Positions 9,890 to 15,630 of a stretch of 20,072 nucleotides of DNA are shown here, piece after piece (position 1 is the first letter of the stretch; every line of letters starts with the position of its first letter). The DNA comes from Pseudobdellovibrionaceae bacterium (GTDB taxonomy: Bacteria > Bdellovibrionota > Bdellovibrionia > Bdellovibrionales > Bdellovibrionaceae): contig JBGGMM010000213.1 in the NCBI GenBank assembly GCA_041288045.1, positions 1 to 20,072 of the forward strand, given 5' to 3'. The notes beneath the pieces are model-generated. The model was given only the letters and a program-made list of their open reading frames with translations. It was not told the origin of the DNA and did not search any database. Position numbers and translations under genes: made by a program.

Positions 9890-10493
9890 TGGCTTTGAAA
9901 TCGAGATTCCTCGATTGGAAATTCTCGACGAAGGAGTTACCGCCCTGTGGGGTTCTTCGGGTTCAGGCAAAACTTCGATTTTGAGAATTCTTCTGGGTCT
10001 TGAGAATTGTCCCGGAATGAAGTGGCGGTGGGGGAGTGAGGATCTCGCTCAGGTGTCTCCGCCGAATCGACGCATTGGAGTCGTTTTTCAAACTCTGGAT
10101 CTTTTTCCGCATCTGACGGCTCGACAAAATATTTTATTTCCAGTGAAAGCGAGGAAGATCCCTGATCTGCAGGCCAATGAGCGATTTGAAAAACTTCAAA
10201 GCGTTCTTCGCTTGGAAAGCTTTTTAGATCGACGAGCTGAGCTTCTTTCTGGCGGAGAAAAACAGCGAGTGGCTTTGGCTCGGGCTTTGATGTCCTTCCC
10301 GCGAATTTTATTTCTGGATGAGCCTTTCTCGGCTTTGGATGAAGCATTGAAATCGGAGGCTCGTCAGTTTTTAAAAACTCTTTTGCAAGAGACGAAAACT
10401 CCGGCCCTTTTGATCACTCATGACGAGCGGGATCTGGAAAAGCTCGCGGCTCAAGTCGTGAGGATCCAGCAAGGGCGGGTTCTCCCGGCCTGA
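9855..10493 (+). CDS. thiQ: ABC transporter ATP-binding protein (ThiQ-like by context)
   Basis: Walker A GSSGSGKT, signature LSGGEKQR, Walker B LFLDEPFSALD, ITHD. Confidence 0.8.
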   Translation: MSVVEHLQKKYDGFEIEIPRLEILDEGVTALWGSSGSGKTSILRILLGLENCPGMKWRWGSEDLAQVSPPNRRIGVVFQTLDLFPHLTARQNILFPVKARKIPDLQANERFEKLQSVLRLESFLDRRAELLSGGEKQRVALARALMSFPRILFLDEPFSALDEALKSEARQFLKTLLQETKTPALLITHDERDLEKLAAQVVRIQQGRVLPA

Positions 10494-10555
10494 TCTCAGC
10501 CTGAGATTTTCAGCCTCAAAAGTTCGCCTCAAATTTAGAAAATGTTGAATGATCC

Positions 10556-10582
10556 TCAAGTTTTGATGCAATGCGTCGAAGA
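10556..10582 (+). promoter_or_regulatory. Sigma-28 (FliA)-type promoter of flagellin 1
   Basis: TCAAGTTT-N11-GTCGAAGA versus consensus TAAAGTTT-N11-GCCGATAA. Confidence 0.7.
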
Positions 10583-10669
10583 GTGGGGTGACTACTGAAC
10601 GAGGACTTTTGCGTATCTGTGCTAGCGACCTTCGTCTTGTCTCATGTCGGGACAGAAGGGGTGCTGAAA

Positions 10670-11497
10670 ATGGGTTTACGTATCAACACGAATCTGGCGA
10701 GCCTAGCCGCTCAACGCCAGATCAGTTTGTCGCAAAGGCAAGCTGAAGGAACAATGAAAGCTCTCGCGAGCGGAAATCGGTTCGCCAACCGGAGTGAAAG
10801 CTCGGCGGATTTCTCTATCGCTGAACATCTCCGTGGACAGATTGCGGGTATTAAATCCGGCAAGATGAATGCCGAGAACGCGCAATCATTTATTCAAGTC
10901 GCAGAGGGCGGGCTGAACGAACAAAACAATCTTTTGATTCGCATGCGTGAATTGGCTGTGCAAGCCGCAAGCGATACTTTCTCTGATCAAGAGAGAGAGT
11001 TCCTCAACTCGGAATTTGAGCAGCTCCAACAAGAGGTGGATCGCATTGCGCTCACCACTCAATTCGGAAGTCAGAAGCTTCTCGCTGGGGAATCGCGAGA
11101 GTATGATTTCCACGTCGGTGCCTATGGGGGCGCTGAGAATATTATCAAATACAAATCAGAGACAAATACCAGGGCGGGCGAACTGGGCGTTGATGGCTTA
11201 ACAGTCAGTGATAAGTCAGACGCCAGGGATTCTTTGGAATCCATCGACGAAGCACTCACTAAGATCGCTTCGGCCCGATCCGGTTTCGGTGCCATTGATG
11301 CTCGATTGAATTCAGCTGTGAACAGCTCAGGAGTCATGGTTGAAAACTTGGAAGCGGCCAGATCAAGAATCGCCGACACCGACATCGCACAAGCGGTGAG
11401 CGATTTCTACCGCAACCAAGCCATGCAACAATACCAAGTCTCGGTCCTCAATGAAGCCAACCGCTTCCCAGGCTCCGTCATCCGCCTCATCGGTTGA
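10670..11497 (+). CDS. fliC: Flagellin 1 (divergent, 275 aa)
   Basis: MGLRINTN start, IQVAEGGLNE, RMRELAVQAASDT, NLEAARSRIADTD. Confidence 0.93.
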   Translation: MGLRINTNLASLAAQRQISLSQRQAEGTMKALASGNRFANRSESSADFSIAEHLRGQIAGIKSGKMNAENAQSFIQVAEGGLNEQNNLLIRMRELAVQAASDTFSDQEREFLNSEFEQLQQEVDRIALTTQFGSQKLLAGESREYDFHVGAYGGAENIIKYKSETNTRAGELGVDGLTVSDKSDARDSLESIDEALTKIASARSGFGAIDARLNSAVNSSGVMVENLEAARSRIADTDIAQAVSDFYRNQAMQQYQVSVLNEANRFPGSVIRLIG

Positions 11498-11498
11498 G

Positions 11499-11523
11499 GG
11501 GTGCCTTTCTCTTTTTCCTTCAC
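11499..11523 (+). repeat. 25-bp REP-like repeat, copy 1
   Basis: GGGTGCCTTTCTCTTTTTCCTTCAC, identical to 12978-13002. Confidence 0.9.
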
Positions 11524-11537
11524 CCGACGTGTCATTT

Positions 11538-11569
11538 AAAGTGCCTGCTGGATCCCGGCAGGCACTTTT
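11538..11569 (+). terminator. Intrinsic terminator after flagellin 1
   Basis: AAAGTGCCTGC...GCAGGCACTTTT hairpin with a T-tail. Confidence 0.8.
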
Positions 11570-11718
11570 CGTTTGGAGAGGTCCAGTCTCGATCGGACCA
11601 TGGTCTAGGCAAAACTGAGACAAACTAGACCTTGGTCGAAAATATTTTTTTTGGAAATTTCCTTTATTAAATCCGATACAAGACGCGCTGCGCAATAACT
11701 TCTACTGGACCTAAGTCC

Positions 11719-11745
11719 TTTAGTTTCCTGGACCTTCGCCGAGAA
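11719..11745 (+). promoter_or_regulatory. Sigma-28-type promoter of flagellin 2
   Basis: TTTAGTTT-N11-GCCGAGAA. Confidence 0.7.
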
Positions 11746-11948
11746 GTTACATGAACACGTTGGAGCAACCCGACAGAAAGCCAAAGGACCTCGTTCAGTA
11801 GTCAGTTCGAGAATCCTGAAAGCCCAAAGCGGCTCAAGTTCCTGGTTAAAGAGAGTCACCTCTTTGGCCTGGGGACCCACTCCAGCAAACAACAATGTTT
11901 TTCAAAAGGAAAAAACAACACAAACAGTGCGTTTGTAGGAGGAACTAT

Positions 11949-12776
11949 ATGGGCTTAAGAATTTCGACGAACATGCCGTCGATCTCAGCACAACGGGTGC
12001 TGCAGACTCAACAACGGCGAATGGAATCTGCGACTCAAAAATTGGCTTCCGGAAGCAGAATTGTGCAAGCTGCTGACGATGCCGCAGGTCTGGCGATTTC
12101 AGAATCTTTGAAAGGTCAGATTAGAGGTATTGCGCAGGCACGTAACAACGCCTTCAACGCTGGATCGGCGATCCAGGTTTCTGAAGGTGGATTGAATGAA
12201 ATCAATAACATCCTGGTTCGATTGCGCGAATTAGGAATCCAATCAGCATCCGATAATATCGGTCAGAAAGAGCGAATGTTCCTTGAAGAGGAATCTCAGC
12301 AGCTCTTGGCAGAAGCGAATCGTATCGCCTTGACCACTCGGTTTGGTGATAAGCTTTTGCTTGATGGTTCTGGTGGAGAACAAGAATTCCACGTCGGTGC
12401 TTTCGCTGGCGAAGAGAACGTGATCCGTTACACTCTTTCGACAGATGCTCGAGCTTCCGAATTGGGAATTGATAGCATTGACATGTCAGAAAAATCTTCG
12501 GCTCGTGATGCCCTTGGCATCGTCGACGGAGCTCTTGATAAAATCGGTCAGATGCGAGCGAACTTTGGTTCGATCCAAAGCCGACTGAACTCCACAGTTT
12601 CCAACTTGGATATTCAGTATGAAAACTTGAGTGCTGCGAACTCTCGAATCAGAGACACAGACGTTGCGAAAGAAACTGCTGAGATTGCTTCAGCGTCGAT
12701 CTTGCAACAGGCAGCGGTCGGAGTTTTGGCTCAAGCCAACACTTTCCCTGGTGTCGCGCTCAAACTGATCGGGTAA
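11949..12776 (+). CDS. fliC: Flagellin 2 (275 aa)
   Basis: MGLRISTN, SGSRIVQAADDAAGLAISE, NLSAANSRIRDTDVA, VLAQAN. SD AGGAGG. Confidence 0.96.
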   Translation: MGLRISTNMPSISAQRVLQTQQRRMESATQKLASGSRIVQAADDAAGLAISESLKGQIRGIAQARNNAFNAGSAIQVSEGGLNEINNILVRLRELGIQSASDNIGQKERMFLEEESQQLLAEANRIALTTRFGDKLLLDGSGGEQEFHVGAFAGEENVIRYTLSTDARASELGIDSIDMSEKSSARDALGIVDGALDKIGQMRANFGSIQSRLNSTVSNLDIQYENLSAANSRIRDTDVAKETAEIASASILQQAAVGVLAQANTFPGVALKLIG

Positions 12777-12878
12777 TCGAAAAACCACTGATGGGCCCTG
12801 GAACTTTCCAGGGTCCACTCTTGAAGTGGAAAATCGAATCCATTTTATACTTTGATCATCGATTTCCGACTTGAAGAG

Positions 12879-12976
12879 ATCGTGAACCATTTAAGGATTT
12901 TGAGGAGTCGATCAGCACAGATACGAAATTCCTCATTAAGCCCGCCCTTGGGAGATTCCCTCCCAAGGGTTTTTTT
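12879..12976 (+). ncRNA. Candidate sRNA or 3'-UTR-derived RNA antisense to the flagellin-1 leader
   Basis: Weak sigma-28-like promoter (12846-12872), a hairpin whose loop carries most of a 12-nt perfect complement to 10612-10623, and a strong terminator. Confidence 0.45.
12944..12976 (+). terminator. Intrinsic terminator
   Basis: CCCTTGGGAG / attcc / CTCCCAAGGG followed by T7. Confidence 0.88.
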
Positions 12977-12977
12977 A

Positions 12978-13002
12978 GGGTGCCTTTCTCTTTTTCCTTC
13001 AC
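12978..13002 (+). repeat. 25-bp REP-like repeat, copy 2
   Basis: GGGTGCCTTTCTCTTTTTCCTTCAC, 8 bp from the RAYT stop codon. Confidence 0.9.
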
Positions 13003-13010
13003 TCGGCGCA

Positions 13011-13646
13011 TTAAAGCCGCCGCTTTTCCAACTCAGCTTCGCAGTTGCGATTTTTATCTTTGGCCAGTTTGAACTCTCCTTTTCTGAGAGCCTTTCCAAC
13101 AATTTCCCAATCCTGTTTTTCAGTGGCGCTATTGAGCCACTTTAGATTTCCGTCCATATCTTCCATCAGTGGATCCTCCTCAACGGGAATCACTAATTTC
13201 TTTTTTCCCACCAATCCGTGAAGAGTCGAGTAGGGATAACTTTCAGTGTGATGGACGCTGCCGACCTCGACCGGATTTCGGTACACGTATTTGTAGGCAT
13301 GCATGTAGTAGTGATAGGACGTGATCAAGCATTTGAAATTGCGCTGACCGTAGATCCGATTTTTGCGACCGGTTCGCCGGCCGATCTCTCGACTTGTTTC
13401 TGTCATGAGCCACCTCATTGCTTTTCCAAGTGTTCCAGTTGAGTCCGTTAAAATCAGATGAAAGTGATTGGTCATCAAAACGAAGCAATGGATTTTGATT
13501 CCATACGCGTGATGGATGAAGAAGAGTTGTTCTTCGAAAATTTCCCAGACTTCACCTAGGTCCAGTTCGAACCACTCTCGATTATTTGTCCGGGCTGTGA
13601 CGTGGTACGGACAGTCTGTTCTGTGGGCTGGGATTTTTCGCGACAT
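13011..13646 (-). mobile_element. REP-associated tyrosine transposase (RAYT, Y1/HUH family)
   Basis: YHVTARTNNR, HUH motif VLMTNHFHLI, catalytic YVYRNPV, YPYST. SD GAGGTG precedes ATG at 13646. Flanked by inverted 25-bp repeats. Confidence 0.88.
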
Positions 13647-13690
13647 GATCACCTCGTCTGCAGACTTCTCCAAATTTCATGCTGAGGTGT

Positions 13691-13715
13691 GTGAAGCAAA
13701 AAGAGAAAGGCACCC
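13691..13715 (-). repeat. 25-bp REP-like repeat, copy 3 (inverted, 1 mismatch)
   Basis: GTGAAGCAAAAAGAGAAAGGCACCC. Confidence 0.88.
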
Positions 13716-13867
13716 TCTATTAAAGTCGGGGTCTGGCTGGACTGGATCTTTGGAGGACCTGGGGATTTTGGTCCTGATTTCCAGACTGAGGTCTAGTTCA
13801 TGCTGAGATTTTCTGCGACGAAGGTCTAGTTCGCACTGGACCCTGGTCCAGTTTCGCTGGACTCGAC

Positions 13868-13894
13868 TAAAGACTCCCTCGACCTCGCCGAAAG
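13868..13894 (+). promoter_or_regulatory. Sigma-28-type promoter of flagellin 3
   Basis: TAAAG at 13868 and GCCGAAAG at 13887-13894, with canonical TAAA-N15-GCCGA spacing. Confidence 0.8.
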
Positions 13895-13900
13895 GTAAGG

Positions 13901-14167
13901 CAAGCAAGTAGATCGAAAGTCGAAAGACGGATCGAGAGAATGTTCGGGTGTGACTGCCTGAGCAGGATCGTTGAGTGATTGTGAGTGCGAAAGCACCCTC
14001 AGAACTCTGAAGTGATGTCGAGCGATGATTGGTTTACTCCAACGTGTTCAACCCAAGTGGCAAGGAATGCCCACTCTCGAAAATAGCCCAAAGTGGCTAA
14101 GGGGTTCGTGTAGGTTACGAACTCGACGAAAGTCTTGGATGGATTCATCAATTATTGGAGGTCCCTT
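13901..14167 (+). promoter_or_regulatory. Long structured 5' leader of flagellin 3 with CsrA-type sites
   Basis: GAAA tetraloop hairpins (13919-13928, 13985-13996, 14125-14134), GGCA-AGGAA-TGCC hairpin (14059-14071), ATGGA at 14139. Confidence 0.6.
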
Positions 14168-15001
14168 ATGGGAATGAGAATTACAACAAACGTCGCGTCG
14201 ATCAATGCACAAAGAAGCTTGTCGACCACACAAAAAGAGATCAGCAAGAGCTACGCACAGCTCTCTAGTGGATCTCGTATCACCAAAGCTGCTGATGATG
14301 CCGCCGGTTTGGCCATCAGTGAAAACTTGAAATCACAGATCCGATCCTTCACTCAAGCCAGCCGAAATGCGAATGACGGGATCTCGATGGTGCAAGTTGC
14401 AGAAGGTGGACTCGGAGAAATTTCTAACATCCTCACTCGCCTCAGAGAATTGGGTATTCAATCAGCCTCAGACACTGTCGGAGAGCGCGAACGGGGATTT
14501 ATCAACAAAGAGGTCGATCAATTGAAAGCAGAGGCTCAGCGTATTGCCAAAACGACTCGCTTTGGAAGCACCAACCTTCTTGATGGCTCTGGACAGATGT
14601 TCGATATCCAGGTCGGTATTTACAACGATGATTTCGAAGATCGTGTGAGCTTTGATCCGTCTCAGTTAGACGCAACTGCCGCCAACCTCGGAATTGAAGA
14701 TTTGGATTTCAGTCAGAAAGAGGGCGCACAGACCGCACTCTCGGTTTTGGACAATGCTCAAGGCTTGGTTTCCGGTTTCCGCGCCAATATCGGTGCGCTT
14801 CAGAACCGATTCTTCTCAACAGTTGAGAATCTCGGTGTTCAGCATGAGAACTTGTCAGCAGCGAACTCGCGAATCCGTGATGCGGACATCGCGCAGTCCA
14901 CAGCTGAGACCGCTCGAAACTCGATTCTTTTGAATGCTTCCACAAGCGTTCTCGCACAGGCCAACAACAGTCCTCAATTGGCTTTGAAACTGATCGGGTA
15001 A
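14168..15001 (+). CDS. fliC: Flagellin 3 (277 aa)
   Basis: MGMRITTN, LSSGSRITKAADDAAGLAISE, RNANDGISMVQVAEGGL, SRIRDADIA, VLAQAN. SD GGAGG. Confidence 0.97.
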   Translation: MGMRITTNVASINAQRSLSTTQKEISKSYAQLSSGSRITKAADDAAGLAISENLKSQIRSFTQASRNANDGISMVQVAEGGLGEISNILTRLRELGIQSASDTVGERERGFINKEVDQLKAEAQRIAKTTRFGSTNLLDGSGQMFDIQVGIYNDDFEDRVSFDPSQLDATAANLGIEDLDFSQKEGAQTALSVLDNAQGLVSGFRANIGALQNRFFSTVENLGVQHENLSAANSRIRDADIAQSTAETARNSILLNASTSVLAQANNSPQLALKLIG

Positions 15002-15019
15002 TTTGAATTGAATTAAAAA

Positions 15020-15144
15020 CTGGGGGAGTACTTTGTCCCTCAGGTGAGAATCAAAGGAAGGGTCTCCAATCCCTTCCGGTACTACCTACCCAGGGGGGCT
15101 TCGTCTCCCTGGAGTACTTCCGGAAATCGGCTCGAGATCCGGAT
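15020..15144 (+). other. Multi-hairpin structured 3' element after flagellin 3
   Basis: Consecutive stems at 15020-15043, 15056-15077, 15079-15117 and 15119-15143. No U-tract. Confidence 0.55.
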
Positions 15145-15154
15145 TACGCGGTGG

Positions 15155-15179
15155 GTGAAGGAAAAAGAGAAAGGCACCC
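15155..15179 (-). repeat. 25-bp REP-like repeat, copy 4 (inverted)
   Basis: GTGAAGGAAAAAGAGAAAGGCACCC, the exact reverse complement of copies 1 and 2. Confidence 0.9.
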
Positions 15180-15246
15180 TCTACCTAAGGCTAGAAATGG
15201 GTGGGGCTTGTTGAGTCGGGGAGTGGGTTTTTCCGATGAGACGAAC

Positions 15247-15630
15247 ATGGATATCAAGAATGCGCTGAATTCGATTTTACCTCTGAATTTGCGAGCTAAA
15301 ACAGCGGTGGATCGAACAATCAAATCAGGCAACGCCACCGACCGGGACGGCAACGGTCAAATGCCATTTGATCAGAATCAGCAGCAGAAAGAGCCAATGA
15401 CTGAGCAGGAGCTAGAAAAAGCCCTGCAACACTTGAAAGACCTGCCAGCCGTCAAAGATCACAATCTCACTGTTGAATTGACCGAGCAGAATGGAAAAAG
15501 ATTTGTTCTTCTCAAAGAGCCAGATGGAAAAATCATCCGTCGAATCCCAGAGTTAGAGCTTTGGTCTTTGCCAGTGATGACCGAGTCTGAGCCAAACAAA
15601 AAAGGCCAGCTCTTGCGAAAAACCGCCTAA
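15247..15630 (+). CDS. FlaG-like flagellar protein (127 aa)
   Basis: C-terminal FVLLKEPDGKIIRRIPELEL resembles the FlaG GEVIRQIP motif, and the gene follows a flagellin. The longer ORF start (15151) runs through repeat copy 4. Confidence 0.6.
   Translation: MDIKNALNSILPLNLRAKTAVDRTIKSGNATDRDGNGQMPFDQNQQQKEPMTEQELEKALQHLKDLPAVKDHNLTVELTEQNGKRFVLLKEPDGKIIRRIPELELWSLPVMTESEPNKKGQLLRKTA

Follow-up and report, generated by a model that had tools for sequence, protein, structure and literature searches.

Introduction

In many bacteria a single filament contains several flagellins, and the control of their ratio and order is largely open. Pairing between two mRNAs is established elsewhere, for example between the hly 5′ untranslated region (UTR) and the prsA2 3′ UTR of Listeria and between irvA and gbpC of Streptococcus mutans. 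The closest known system involving flagellins is that of Vibrio cholerae, in which RNase E releases the RNA FlaX from the flaA 3′ UTR and FlaX then base-pairs within the 5′ UTR of the flagellin mRNA flaB; this pairing uses three sites including the ribosome-binding site, depends on ProQ and sets flagellin ratio and timing, and its authors propose such control as a general concept for flagellin mRNAs (PMC11879080). Here we analyse three flagellin genes of a Pseudobdellovibrionaceae bacterium, fliC-a, fliC-b and fliC-c, which lie consecutively on the + strand of a stretch of 20,072 nucleotides (nt), referred to as the window, that forms one contig of a metagenome-assembled genome (2.89 Mb, 83% complete). 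The predicted 5′ end of the fliC-a mRNA (arm A) is complementary to a segment of the fliC-b leader (arm B), and from sequence comparison we consider it likely that these arms pair with each other in an RNA–RNA interaction that is under selection on the sense strand and joins two sigma-28-dependent flagellin transcripts.

As in hly/prsA2 and irvA/gbpC, where the outcome is regulatory, two coding transcripts would pair in trans; those partners differ in being neither paralogues nor flagellar, and they lack a chain arrangement. FlaX is closer, in that an RNA from one flagellin transcript pairs with the 5′ UTR of a paralogue, and the initial annotation's statement that no such system had been described was too strong. 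In contrast to FlaX, however, the pairing segment here is the predicted extreme 5′ end of an mRNA (arm A, +1 to +31) and not a 3′ UTR; arm B is not placed over ribosome-binding or standby sites, since 133 nt separate its 3′ end from the Shine–Dalgarno sequence downstream; and a second, similar pairing would connect the 5′ end of the target transcript with the leader of a third flagellin gene. The fliC-a 3′ UTR, which contains a repeat element and the terminator, showed no complementarity to the fliC-b leader. Being neither 3′-UTR-derived nor placed over a ribosome-binding site, the pairing lacks the features that define the FlaX type.

Other relevant RNAs are the sigma-28-dependent, UTR-derived small RNAs (sRNAs) of E. 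coli (PMC10578931) and a flagellar sRNA pair of Campylobacter jejuni (PMC11187230). Like the transcripts described here, these are base-pairing RNAs made with late flagellar genes, some of them UTR-derived, and they tune flagellar expression; they differ in being, by the titles and abstracts of the reports, separate sRNAs. In Bdellovibrio bacteriovorus, the attack-phase RNA APsRNA3 (561,854–561,981) is expressed from a FliA promoter at 14,726 reads per kilobase per million (RPKM) (PMC3627812, Table 2), and the available text of that study proposes no function or target for it. A search of the literature on Bdellovibrio flagellin leaders and on mRNA–mRNA or sRNA pairing of flagellin transcripts, with most subscription journals outside its reach, found no description of the pairing reported here.

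Results

Complementary segments in the leaders of fliC-a and fliC-b

The 16-mer TGACTACTGAACGAGG (10589–10604) is the exact reverse complement of 11789–11804. The duplex between 10589–10620 and 11773–11804 extends over 32 positions and contains 27 Watson–Crick pairs (84%), one U–G pair (position 19) and four mismatches (positions 17, 24, 25 and 27), so that direct reading confirmed the pairing listed in the initial annotation. This pair ranks third longest among the 66 inverted pairs in the window. With up to 3 mismatches allowed, the 16-mer has two matches in the window against 0.12 expected, and 0 of 100 window shuffles gave two or more; with up to 2 mismatches, these two copies are the only ones in the 2.89-Mb genome. 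A reversed control pattern had five matches in the same genome at up to 2 mismatches, indicating that loose matches are common and exact ones are not. The low probability of a chance origin, estimated earlier from the length of the match, was thereby upheld.

Arm A was also said to start at the expected transcription start, and this agrees with the start predicted here. Only 6 nt separate it from the −10 box GTCGAAGA of the fliC-a promoter, placing its first base as the seventh after the box, at the predicted +1, and arm B lies inside the predicted fliC-b transcript. A sigma-28 promoter of the fliC-a type precedes arm A in 16 of 17 relatives, and the fliC-b promoter block CCTGGACCnnnGCCGAGAAGTT is kept in 25 distinct relatives. 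The +1 sites were predicted by carrying over the 8-nt distance between −10 box and start from the mapped start of a paralogous promoter in the related genome G064, whose flagellin open reading frames (ORFs) have coordinates identical to those of Bd0604 and Bd0606 in the supplement of PMC3627812. In G064, the promoter homologous to that of fliC-c has its mapped start (that of Bd0606, at 564,050; PMC3627812) 8 nt past the −10 box GCCGAAAG. The mapped 5′ end at the position homologous to the fliC-b promoter is annotated 'FliA promoter: yes', and the attack-phase promoter consensus of a relative is TTAAG-N16-CCGATA, both in the same study (PMC3627812). By analogy, transcription of fliC-a, fliC-b and fliC-c would begin at G10590, G11753 and A13902, giving leaders of 80, 196 and 266 nt, respectively.

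Conservation of the complementarity among relatives

The fliC-a/fliC-b arrangement is present in 7 of 7 same-genus genomes and also in other genera. When the first 32 nt of the fliC-a mRNA were compared by RNAduplex with the whole region upstream of fliC-b (which, here and in the 23-sequence RNAalifold analysis described below, includes about 75 nt of promoter DNA), the best site was arm B in 17 of 17 genomes. A strict pattern of promoter A followed by arm A had a single match in each of 29 of the 182 genomes of the family, representing at least 11 genera, while a reversed control had 2 matches.

A scan of contigs with the promoter-B motif gave 43 loci: 24 beside a flagellin gene, 8 of them duplicates of known loci, and 19 in unrelated phyla, without a flagellin and mostly chance matches. 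From an enlarged set, 6 loci were dropped because fewer than 1,290 nt were available downstream, as were 3 duplicates and 7 loci identical to earlier ones, and 30 distinct arm-A sequences were counted. For 27 of these the best duplex site was on the arm-B core. Two of the other three have arm B 1.6–1.7 kb downstream (−37.6 and −35.7 kcal/mol) and one has it on another contig (−40.2 kcal/mol), so a matching arm B was located for all 30 distinct arm-A sequences with enough sequence. Conservation of the complementarity in relatives, on which the initial annotation had let its proposal depend, is thus found in 17 of 17 genomes and for 30 of 30 arm-A sequences.

The arms also tend to be present or absent together. 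By exact arm patterns, 20 of the 182 genomes have both arms, 9 only arm A, 8 only arm B and 145 neither. Among the nine with arm A only, duplex search revealed a variant arm B in six, and the other three are cut by contig ends; the one genome examined of the eight with arm B only (G014) has arm A behind a variant −10 box. In a sister genus (g10, which includes G016 and G064), arm A occurs in 0 of 44 genomes. The two members of this genus that were read have six flagellin genes, none of them fliC-a, and a fliC-b-type leader which contains box 2 and hairpin 2 (Table 1) and lacks hairpin 1, the hairpin that presents arm B. The joint lack of fliC-a and hairpin 1 in these two members suggests that the hairpin is there for the sake of fliC-a.

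A distance of 1.0–1.5 kb on the same strand separates the arms in 27 of 30 cases, a spacing that would also suit pairing in cis within a read-through fliC-a–fliC-b transcript, with fliC-a enclosed in a 1.2-kb loop. We regard such cis pairing as very unlikely, because in the window a strong intrinsic terminator stands between the arms, located between fliC-a and the fliC-b promoter, and because fliC-b has its own conserved sigma-28 promoter. Furthermore, the two arms are on separate contigs in three genomes (G041, G043 and G143), where opposite-strand non-flagellin genes lie upstream of the fliC-b leader, and at locus L054 an opposite-strand gene lies between them. In the three genomes with unlinked arms, a reading purely in cis, or one by DNA inversion, is thereby excluded.

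Co-evolution of the arms and strand sense

The seed of arm A, (U)GACURCUG, is near-invariant. The next 10–25 nt are variable between lineages (for example AACGAGG, AACGGGGC, AAAUGAAC, AAUUGAAC, CUAUUGGCGAG and GGACGAAGGUCCUAUUU) yet matched within each genome, including a matched insertion at locus L015. Cognate arms gave a mean duplex energy of −39.8 kcal/mol, compared with −30.0 kcal/mol for non-cognate arms; 0 of 20,000 permutations reached the observed sum, and the result was unchanged when one representative was used for each of the 22 arm-A clusters. In an alignment of 25 sequences over both arms, 91.9% of 393 cells were paired (shuffled, 83.8 ± 0.7), and changes on both sides were seen at 11 of 16 pairs (shuffled, 5.3 ± 1.2) and in 36 cells (shuffled, 11.0). 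None of 500 shuffles reached the observed paired share, the number of both-side pairs or the number of both-side cells, so the inter-gene covariation expected of a pairing between these transcripts was recovered. Sliding the partner by 1–3 columns reduced pairing to 18–44%. Distinct arm types arose in different lineages.

A covarying complementarity could also be read by some third molecule, an sRNA or an RNA-binding protein, that recognises both arms and of whose action their mutual complementarity is a by-product. Such a factor would fit the recurrence of the invariant CAGUCAC, or its complement, in the loops of three hairpins in the leaders of fliC-b and fliC-c. A third RNA, however, would need to co-vary with both arms in every lineage, and a protein leaves the lineage-specific match of the variable 10–25 nt, including the L015 insertion, unexplained; we therefore hold this explanation to be highly improbable.

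The mismatches that remain carry information on the strand. Internal mismatches, defined as those flanked by two matches on each side, comprised 14 transitions that give G–U on + strand RNAs, none that give A–C, and 12 transversions. The 14:0 ratio implies that the constraint acts on the + strand RNAs. A repeat maintained at the level of DNA, whether as inversion site, as operator or by gene conversion, predicts no asymmetry between G–U and A–C, and the ratio counts against it. This matters because the repeats in the window flank fliC-a together with the fliC-b promoter, and repeats flanking a flagellin gene and a promoter resemble the hin switch of Salmonella: the arms might then be the ends of a segment inverted in flagellar phase variation, or else two operators of one protein, kept alike by gene conversion. 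Besides the asymmetry, no serine or tyrosine invertase was found by Pfam in the 22 ORFs of the window, the Y1 transposase at 13011–13673 belonging to a repeat element, and all 25 aligned linked loci have one orientation. Contigs from three DNA sequencing runs cover 10300–12200 without joints and with a single A>G difference at 11676, although rare forms would escape notice in contigs. The arms are unlinked in three genomes, and their variable flanks co-vary, which a shared protein site does not require. Of all the explanations considered, one at the level of DNA appears the least credible.

Conservation, covariation, the 14:0 strand asymmetry and the three unlinked genomes together support the proposal made in the initial annotation, that two sense mRNAs pair in trans.

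Predicted structure and accessibility of the arms

Arm A is mostly unpaired in the predicted fold of its leader (probability of being unpaired for nt 1–10 in the window, 0.58). Arm B consists of the loop of hairpin 1, the 5′ strand of its stem and some upstream bases; arm A thus resembles the 3′ strand of the stem and would displace it. In predicted folds of 23 relatives, the arm-B core is wholly or partly in the apical loop in all except L063, on stems that differ by lineage. Co-folding of the two full leaders of the window, a check suggested at the outset, gained −29.9 kcal/mol, compared with −6.1 ± 2.6 kcal/mol (best of 100, −13.0) when the first 32 nt of leader A were shuffled.

Further downstream, hairpin 2 shows compensatory changes at 8 stem pairs (23 sequences), and the ribosome-binding region of fliC-b is predicted to lie in a helix of its own, formed by the Shine–Dalgarno sequence and a conserved CUCC located 3′ of hairpin 2. 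In fliC-a, a box GUCUGUGGGCG placed directly after arm A in many relatives is predicted to pair beside the start codon, and may act as a translational lock adjoining the pairing site. This box is also found towards the end of the fliC-b leaders in a distant group.

Two folding results were set aside. A 5-bp long-range pair between an upstream block and the arm-B core, in the weak RNAalifold consensus of 23 sequences (−8.64 kcal/mol), involves a block that is probably not transcribed, and RNAduplex runs on regions of 330–600 nt returned giant duplexes without meaning.

Several observations weigh against the proposed interaction or limit it. Opening of hairpin 1 costs 8–24 kcal/mol in the model; this is less than the duplex energy (−30 to −45 kcal/mol) in 17 of 17 genomes, though barely so at L039 (24.1 against −29.6 kcal/mol). 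Blocking arm B in silico produced no consistent change in the accessibility of the fliC-b Shine–Dalgarno sequence across 17 genomes, so that no mechanism of action is supported by folding. Related genomes are not independent, and the permutation and shuffle figures given above therefore overstate significance. A search for sequencing runs returned four, none of them of RNA, and the starts of both fliC-a and fliC-b are predictions for this organism. In G064 the mapped start of the homologous leader follows the −10 box by 12 nt, not 8; the starts may thus be off by a few bases, which is relevant to box 2 and not to arm B.

Possible pairing of the fliC-b 5′ end with the fliC-c leader

A second complementarity of the same kind links fliC-b to fliC-c. 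The predicted first 13 nt of the fliC-b mRNA, GAACACGUUGGAG (11753–11765, box 2), complement CUCCAACGUGUUC (14037–14049, box C) in the fliC-c leader. Among 30 loci, both promoters could be located in 12; 9 had promoter B without promoter C in the fetched DNA, and the promoter-B pattern was unmatched in the other 9. Where both promoters were located, the box forms part of the best duplex between the fliC-b 5′ region and the fliC-c leader in 12 of 12 loci (−21.8 to −31.2 kcal/mol, values that have no shuffle control). Changes on both sides were found in four lineages (AGACACAUUGGAGC/GCUCCAAUGUGUCU, AAACACG/CGUGUUU, GUACACG/CGUGUAC and ACAUGUU/AACAUGU).

Complementary loops are a further feature of these two leaders: that of fliC-b carries CAGUCAC or CAGUAGUCA (11854–11859 and 11796–11803), and that of fliC-c carries GUGACUG. 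The loop sequences are invariant, and covariation therefore cannot test them.

Taken as a series, the pairings would make possible a relay of three full-length flagellin mRNAs, connected by duplexes between 5′ end and leader and without a dedicated sRNA. In such a relay, which we put forward tentatively, the fliC-a 5′ end would dock on hairpin 1 of fliC-b, and the fliC-b 5′ end on the fliC-c box, aided by the complementary loops. For a third step, the 83%-complete genome was searched with the first 22 nt of the fliC-c mRNA in reverse complement, and no further match was present when up to 3 mismatches were allowed.

Another flagellin start of the same genome (locus L007, contig C64; start at locus position 1489) has GTAGTCACC directly after a sigma-28-like promoter. 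This sequence complements GGTGACTAC at 10587–10595, two of whose nine bases are upstream of the predicted fliC-a start.

The active partner may, alternatively, be a stable 5′ fragment of the fliC-b leader, that is, a 5′-UTR-derived sRNA of about 130–150 nt ending after hairpin 2, which would act in trans on the fliC-a mRNA and the fliC-c leader. This would refine the proposed interaction between the two transcripts, and we see it as a plausible variant, if short of a probable one. It is suggested by G064, in which the discrete attack-phase RNA APsRNA3, with its 14,726 RPKM and FliA promoter, corresponds to the initial 128 nt of the fliC-b-homologous leader; according to its authors, long 5′ UTRs joined to the downstream gene had been discarded in that study (PMC3627812). 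APsRNA3 starts inside box 2 and contains hairpin 2. Its 5′ end, 12 nt past the −10 box of the G064 counterpart of the fliC-b promoter, is 4 nt inside box 2, leaving 6 of 12 complementary bases. It ends at a U-run about 25 nt past hairpin 2, and a comparable run, GUUUUU, is present in the window at 11898–11903. On the other hand, G064 has neither fliC-a nor hairpin 1, so that it is silent on the pairing of arms A and B and only the pairing of fliC-b with fliC-c could apply there. The window has no canonical terminator at this point, the U-run not being adjacent to a hairpin, and the evidence for a discrete RNA comes from a single RNA-seq study (PMC3627812).

A second small RNA of G064, APsRNA4 (562,984–563,081), lies 30 nt past the stop codon of the fliC-b-homologous flagellin gene and before its terminator, as placed by the coordinates available from that study.

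Features of the locus

The features of the three flagellin genes and their leaders are collected in Table 1. In the genome as a whole, seven complete flagellin genes are present, together with one weaker match to Flagellin_N.

Table 1. Coordinates of flagellin genes, predicted regulatory features and pairing segments in the window
Feature	Position	Strand	Description
fliC-a sigma-28-type promoter	10556–10582	+	−35 TCAAGTTT (10556–10563), 11-nt spacer, −10 GTCGAAGA (10575–10582)
Arm A	10589–10620	+	About 31 nt at the 5′ terminus of the fliC-a mRNA by predicted +1; invariant seed (U)GACURCUG, then variable co-evolving part
fliC-a 5′ leader	10590–10669	+	80 nt; 3′ half predicted to fold onto ribosome-binding region
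fliC-a	10670–11497	+	275-residue flagellin; Pfam Flagellin_N 6.1e−30, Flagellin_C 1.3e−18; start ATG 10670
fliC-a intrinsic terminator	11538–11575	+	14-bp stem followed by UUUUCGUUU; −26.9 kcal/mol, z −4.65, 0/200 shuffles as good
fliC-b sigma-28-type promoter	11719–11745	+	−35 TTTAGTTT (11719–11726), spacer CCTGGACCTTC, −10 GCCGAGAA (11738–11745)
Box 2	11753–11765	+	GAACACGTTGGAG, predicted 5′ end of fliC-b mRNA; complementary to 14037–14049; inverted repeat, 18/20
Arm B	11773–11804	+	+21 to +52 of predicted fliC-b mRNA; 133 nt upstream of Shine–Dalgarno AGGAGGA (11937–11943)
Hairpin 1, fliC-b leader	11785–11817	+	Conserved core CAGYAGUCA in apical loop; predicted fold
Hairpin 2, fliC-b leader	11838–11876	+	Loop AGUCAC (11854–11859); −21.5 kcal/mol
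fliC-b	11949–12776	+	275-residue flagellin; Pfam Flagellin_N 2.3e−31, Flagellin_C 6.8e−22; start ATG 11949
fliC-c sigma-28-type promoter	13868–13894	+	−35 TAAAGACT, −10 GCCGAAAG (13887–13894)
fliC-c leader hairpin loop	13950–13958	+	GUGACUGCC; complementary to CAGUCAC loops of fliC-b leader; nine-leader alignment and fold
Box C	14037–14049	+	CTCCAACGTGTTC, about +136 to +148 of fliC-c leader; partner of box 2
fliC-c	14168–15001	+	Flagellin; Pfam Flagellin_N 1.1e−37

Two earlier placements of the fliC-b promoter and leader were rejected. A weak sigma-28-like sequence, GGAAATTT-N11-TCCGATAC with a start near 11678, was tried as the fliC-b promoter and is not conserved in relatives. The block CCTWAAGTTTCCTGGACCnnnGCCGAGAA, tried as part of the fliC-b leader, proved from the mapped ends in G064 to be the sigma-28 promoter itself.

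Upstream of the fliC-b promoter, a block from ACAAGACGCGCTGCG onward (11678–11718) is conserved in 25 relatives with a sharp common first base; a regulator may bind there, or an upstream promoter that has escaped recognition may give rise to a longer transcript that includes the block. The heptamer CTRGACC has 11 copies in the window against 2.2 expected, a number reached by 0 of 100 shuffles. Nine of the copies cluster upstream of or inside the fliC-b and fliC-c promoters (11580–11734 and 13790–13851), and some are palindromic (CTGGACC-nn-GGTCCAG), making them candidate sites for a DNA-binding regulator.

The gene for the IS200-like Y1 transposase noted above, identified by Pfam, is on the − strand between fliC-b and fliC-c (13011–13673). 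A repeat of about 26–37 nt (GGGTGCCTTTCTCTTTTTCCTTCAC...) occurs at 11499–11535, 12977–13009, 13691–13716 (inverted) and 15143–15180 (inverted); it thus flanks the transposase gene in inverted orientation, is also found 3′ of fliC-a and fliC-c, and has at least 12 further copies on 8 other contigs of the genome. Repeat and transposase together look like a repetitive extragenic palindromic (REP) element with a REP-associated transposase.

A search of 10400–15300 against Rfam (E up to 1) gave no match reaching its gathering score. The sole match listed was to the alphaproteobacterial sRNA ar14, at 11485–11570 (27.3 bits against a gathering score of 58.8; E 0.031); it falls on the repeat element and the terminator and is probably due to chance.

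Discussion

The comparison of genomes establishes the complementarity of the arms, their co-evolution and its strand sense; it also shows that the match does not require linkage and that the two arms tend to occur, or to be missing, together. These findings argue for an interaction between two flagellin RNAs. If both RNAs start as their promoters predict and the helix forms in the cell, the following sequence of events may be envisaged. The fliC-a mRNA, its 5′ end largely unstructured, would start at about G10590, and its seed (U)GACURCUG would meet CAGYAGUCA in the apical loop of hairpin 1 in the fliC-b 5′ UTR. Pairing would then spread into the 5′ strand of the hairpin 1 stem and beyond, displacing the 3′ strand, to give an intermolecular helix of 17–36 bp. 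The 5′ part of the fliC-b transcript, whether within the full-length mRNA or in the form of a released fragment resembling the 128-nt sRNA of a relative, would serve as a regulatory hub, capturing the 5′ end of the fliC-a mRNA through hairpin 1 and pairing with the fliC-c leader through box 2. The stability or translation of three flagellin mRNAs could in this way be tied together, setting the ratio or the order of the flagellins.

Since arm B is 133 nt away from the ribosome-binding site, direct occlusion of that site is unlikely. An effect of the helix through burial of the 5′ end, or through double-strand-specific cleavage of a long helix, appears more likely than one on fliC-b initiation, and would bear on RNA stability or processing. 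Should the relay of full-length mRNAs exist, the messages would sense each other's abundance directly, and the order or stoichiometry of the flagellins of a composite filament would be fixed, or the messages gathered at the export apparatus.

To date, communication between flagellin paralogues at the RNA level has been demonstrated in Vibrio, through a 3′-UTR-derived sRNA. The present case is supported by comparison as strongly as sequence alone allows, and its apparent design differs: the extreme 5′ end of one mRNA would recognise a hairpin loop in the leader of the next flagellin, and this would be repeated once down the row of genes. The design spans at least 11 genera of Bdellovibrio-like predators. 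It opens to test the idea that mRNAs may regulate each other through their 5′ termini, as well as the role of the abundant APsRNA3 of B. bacteriovorus, for which box 2 predicts a fliC2-type leader as target. It likewise opens to test the tuning of filament composition in predators whose attack phase needs fast swimming.

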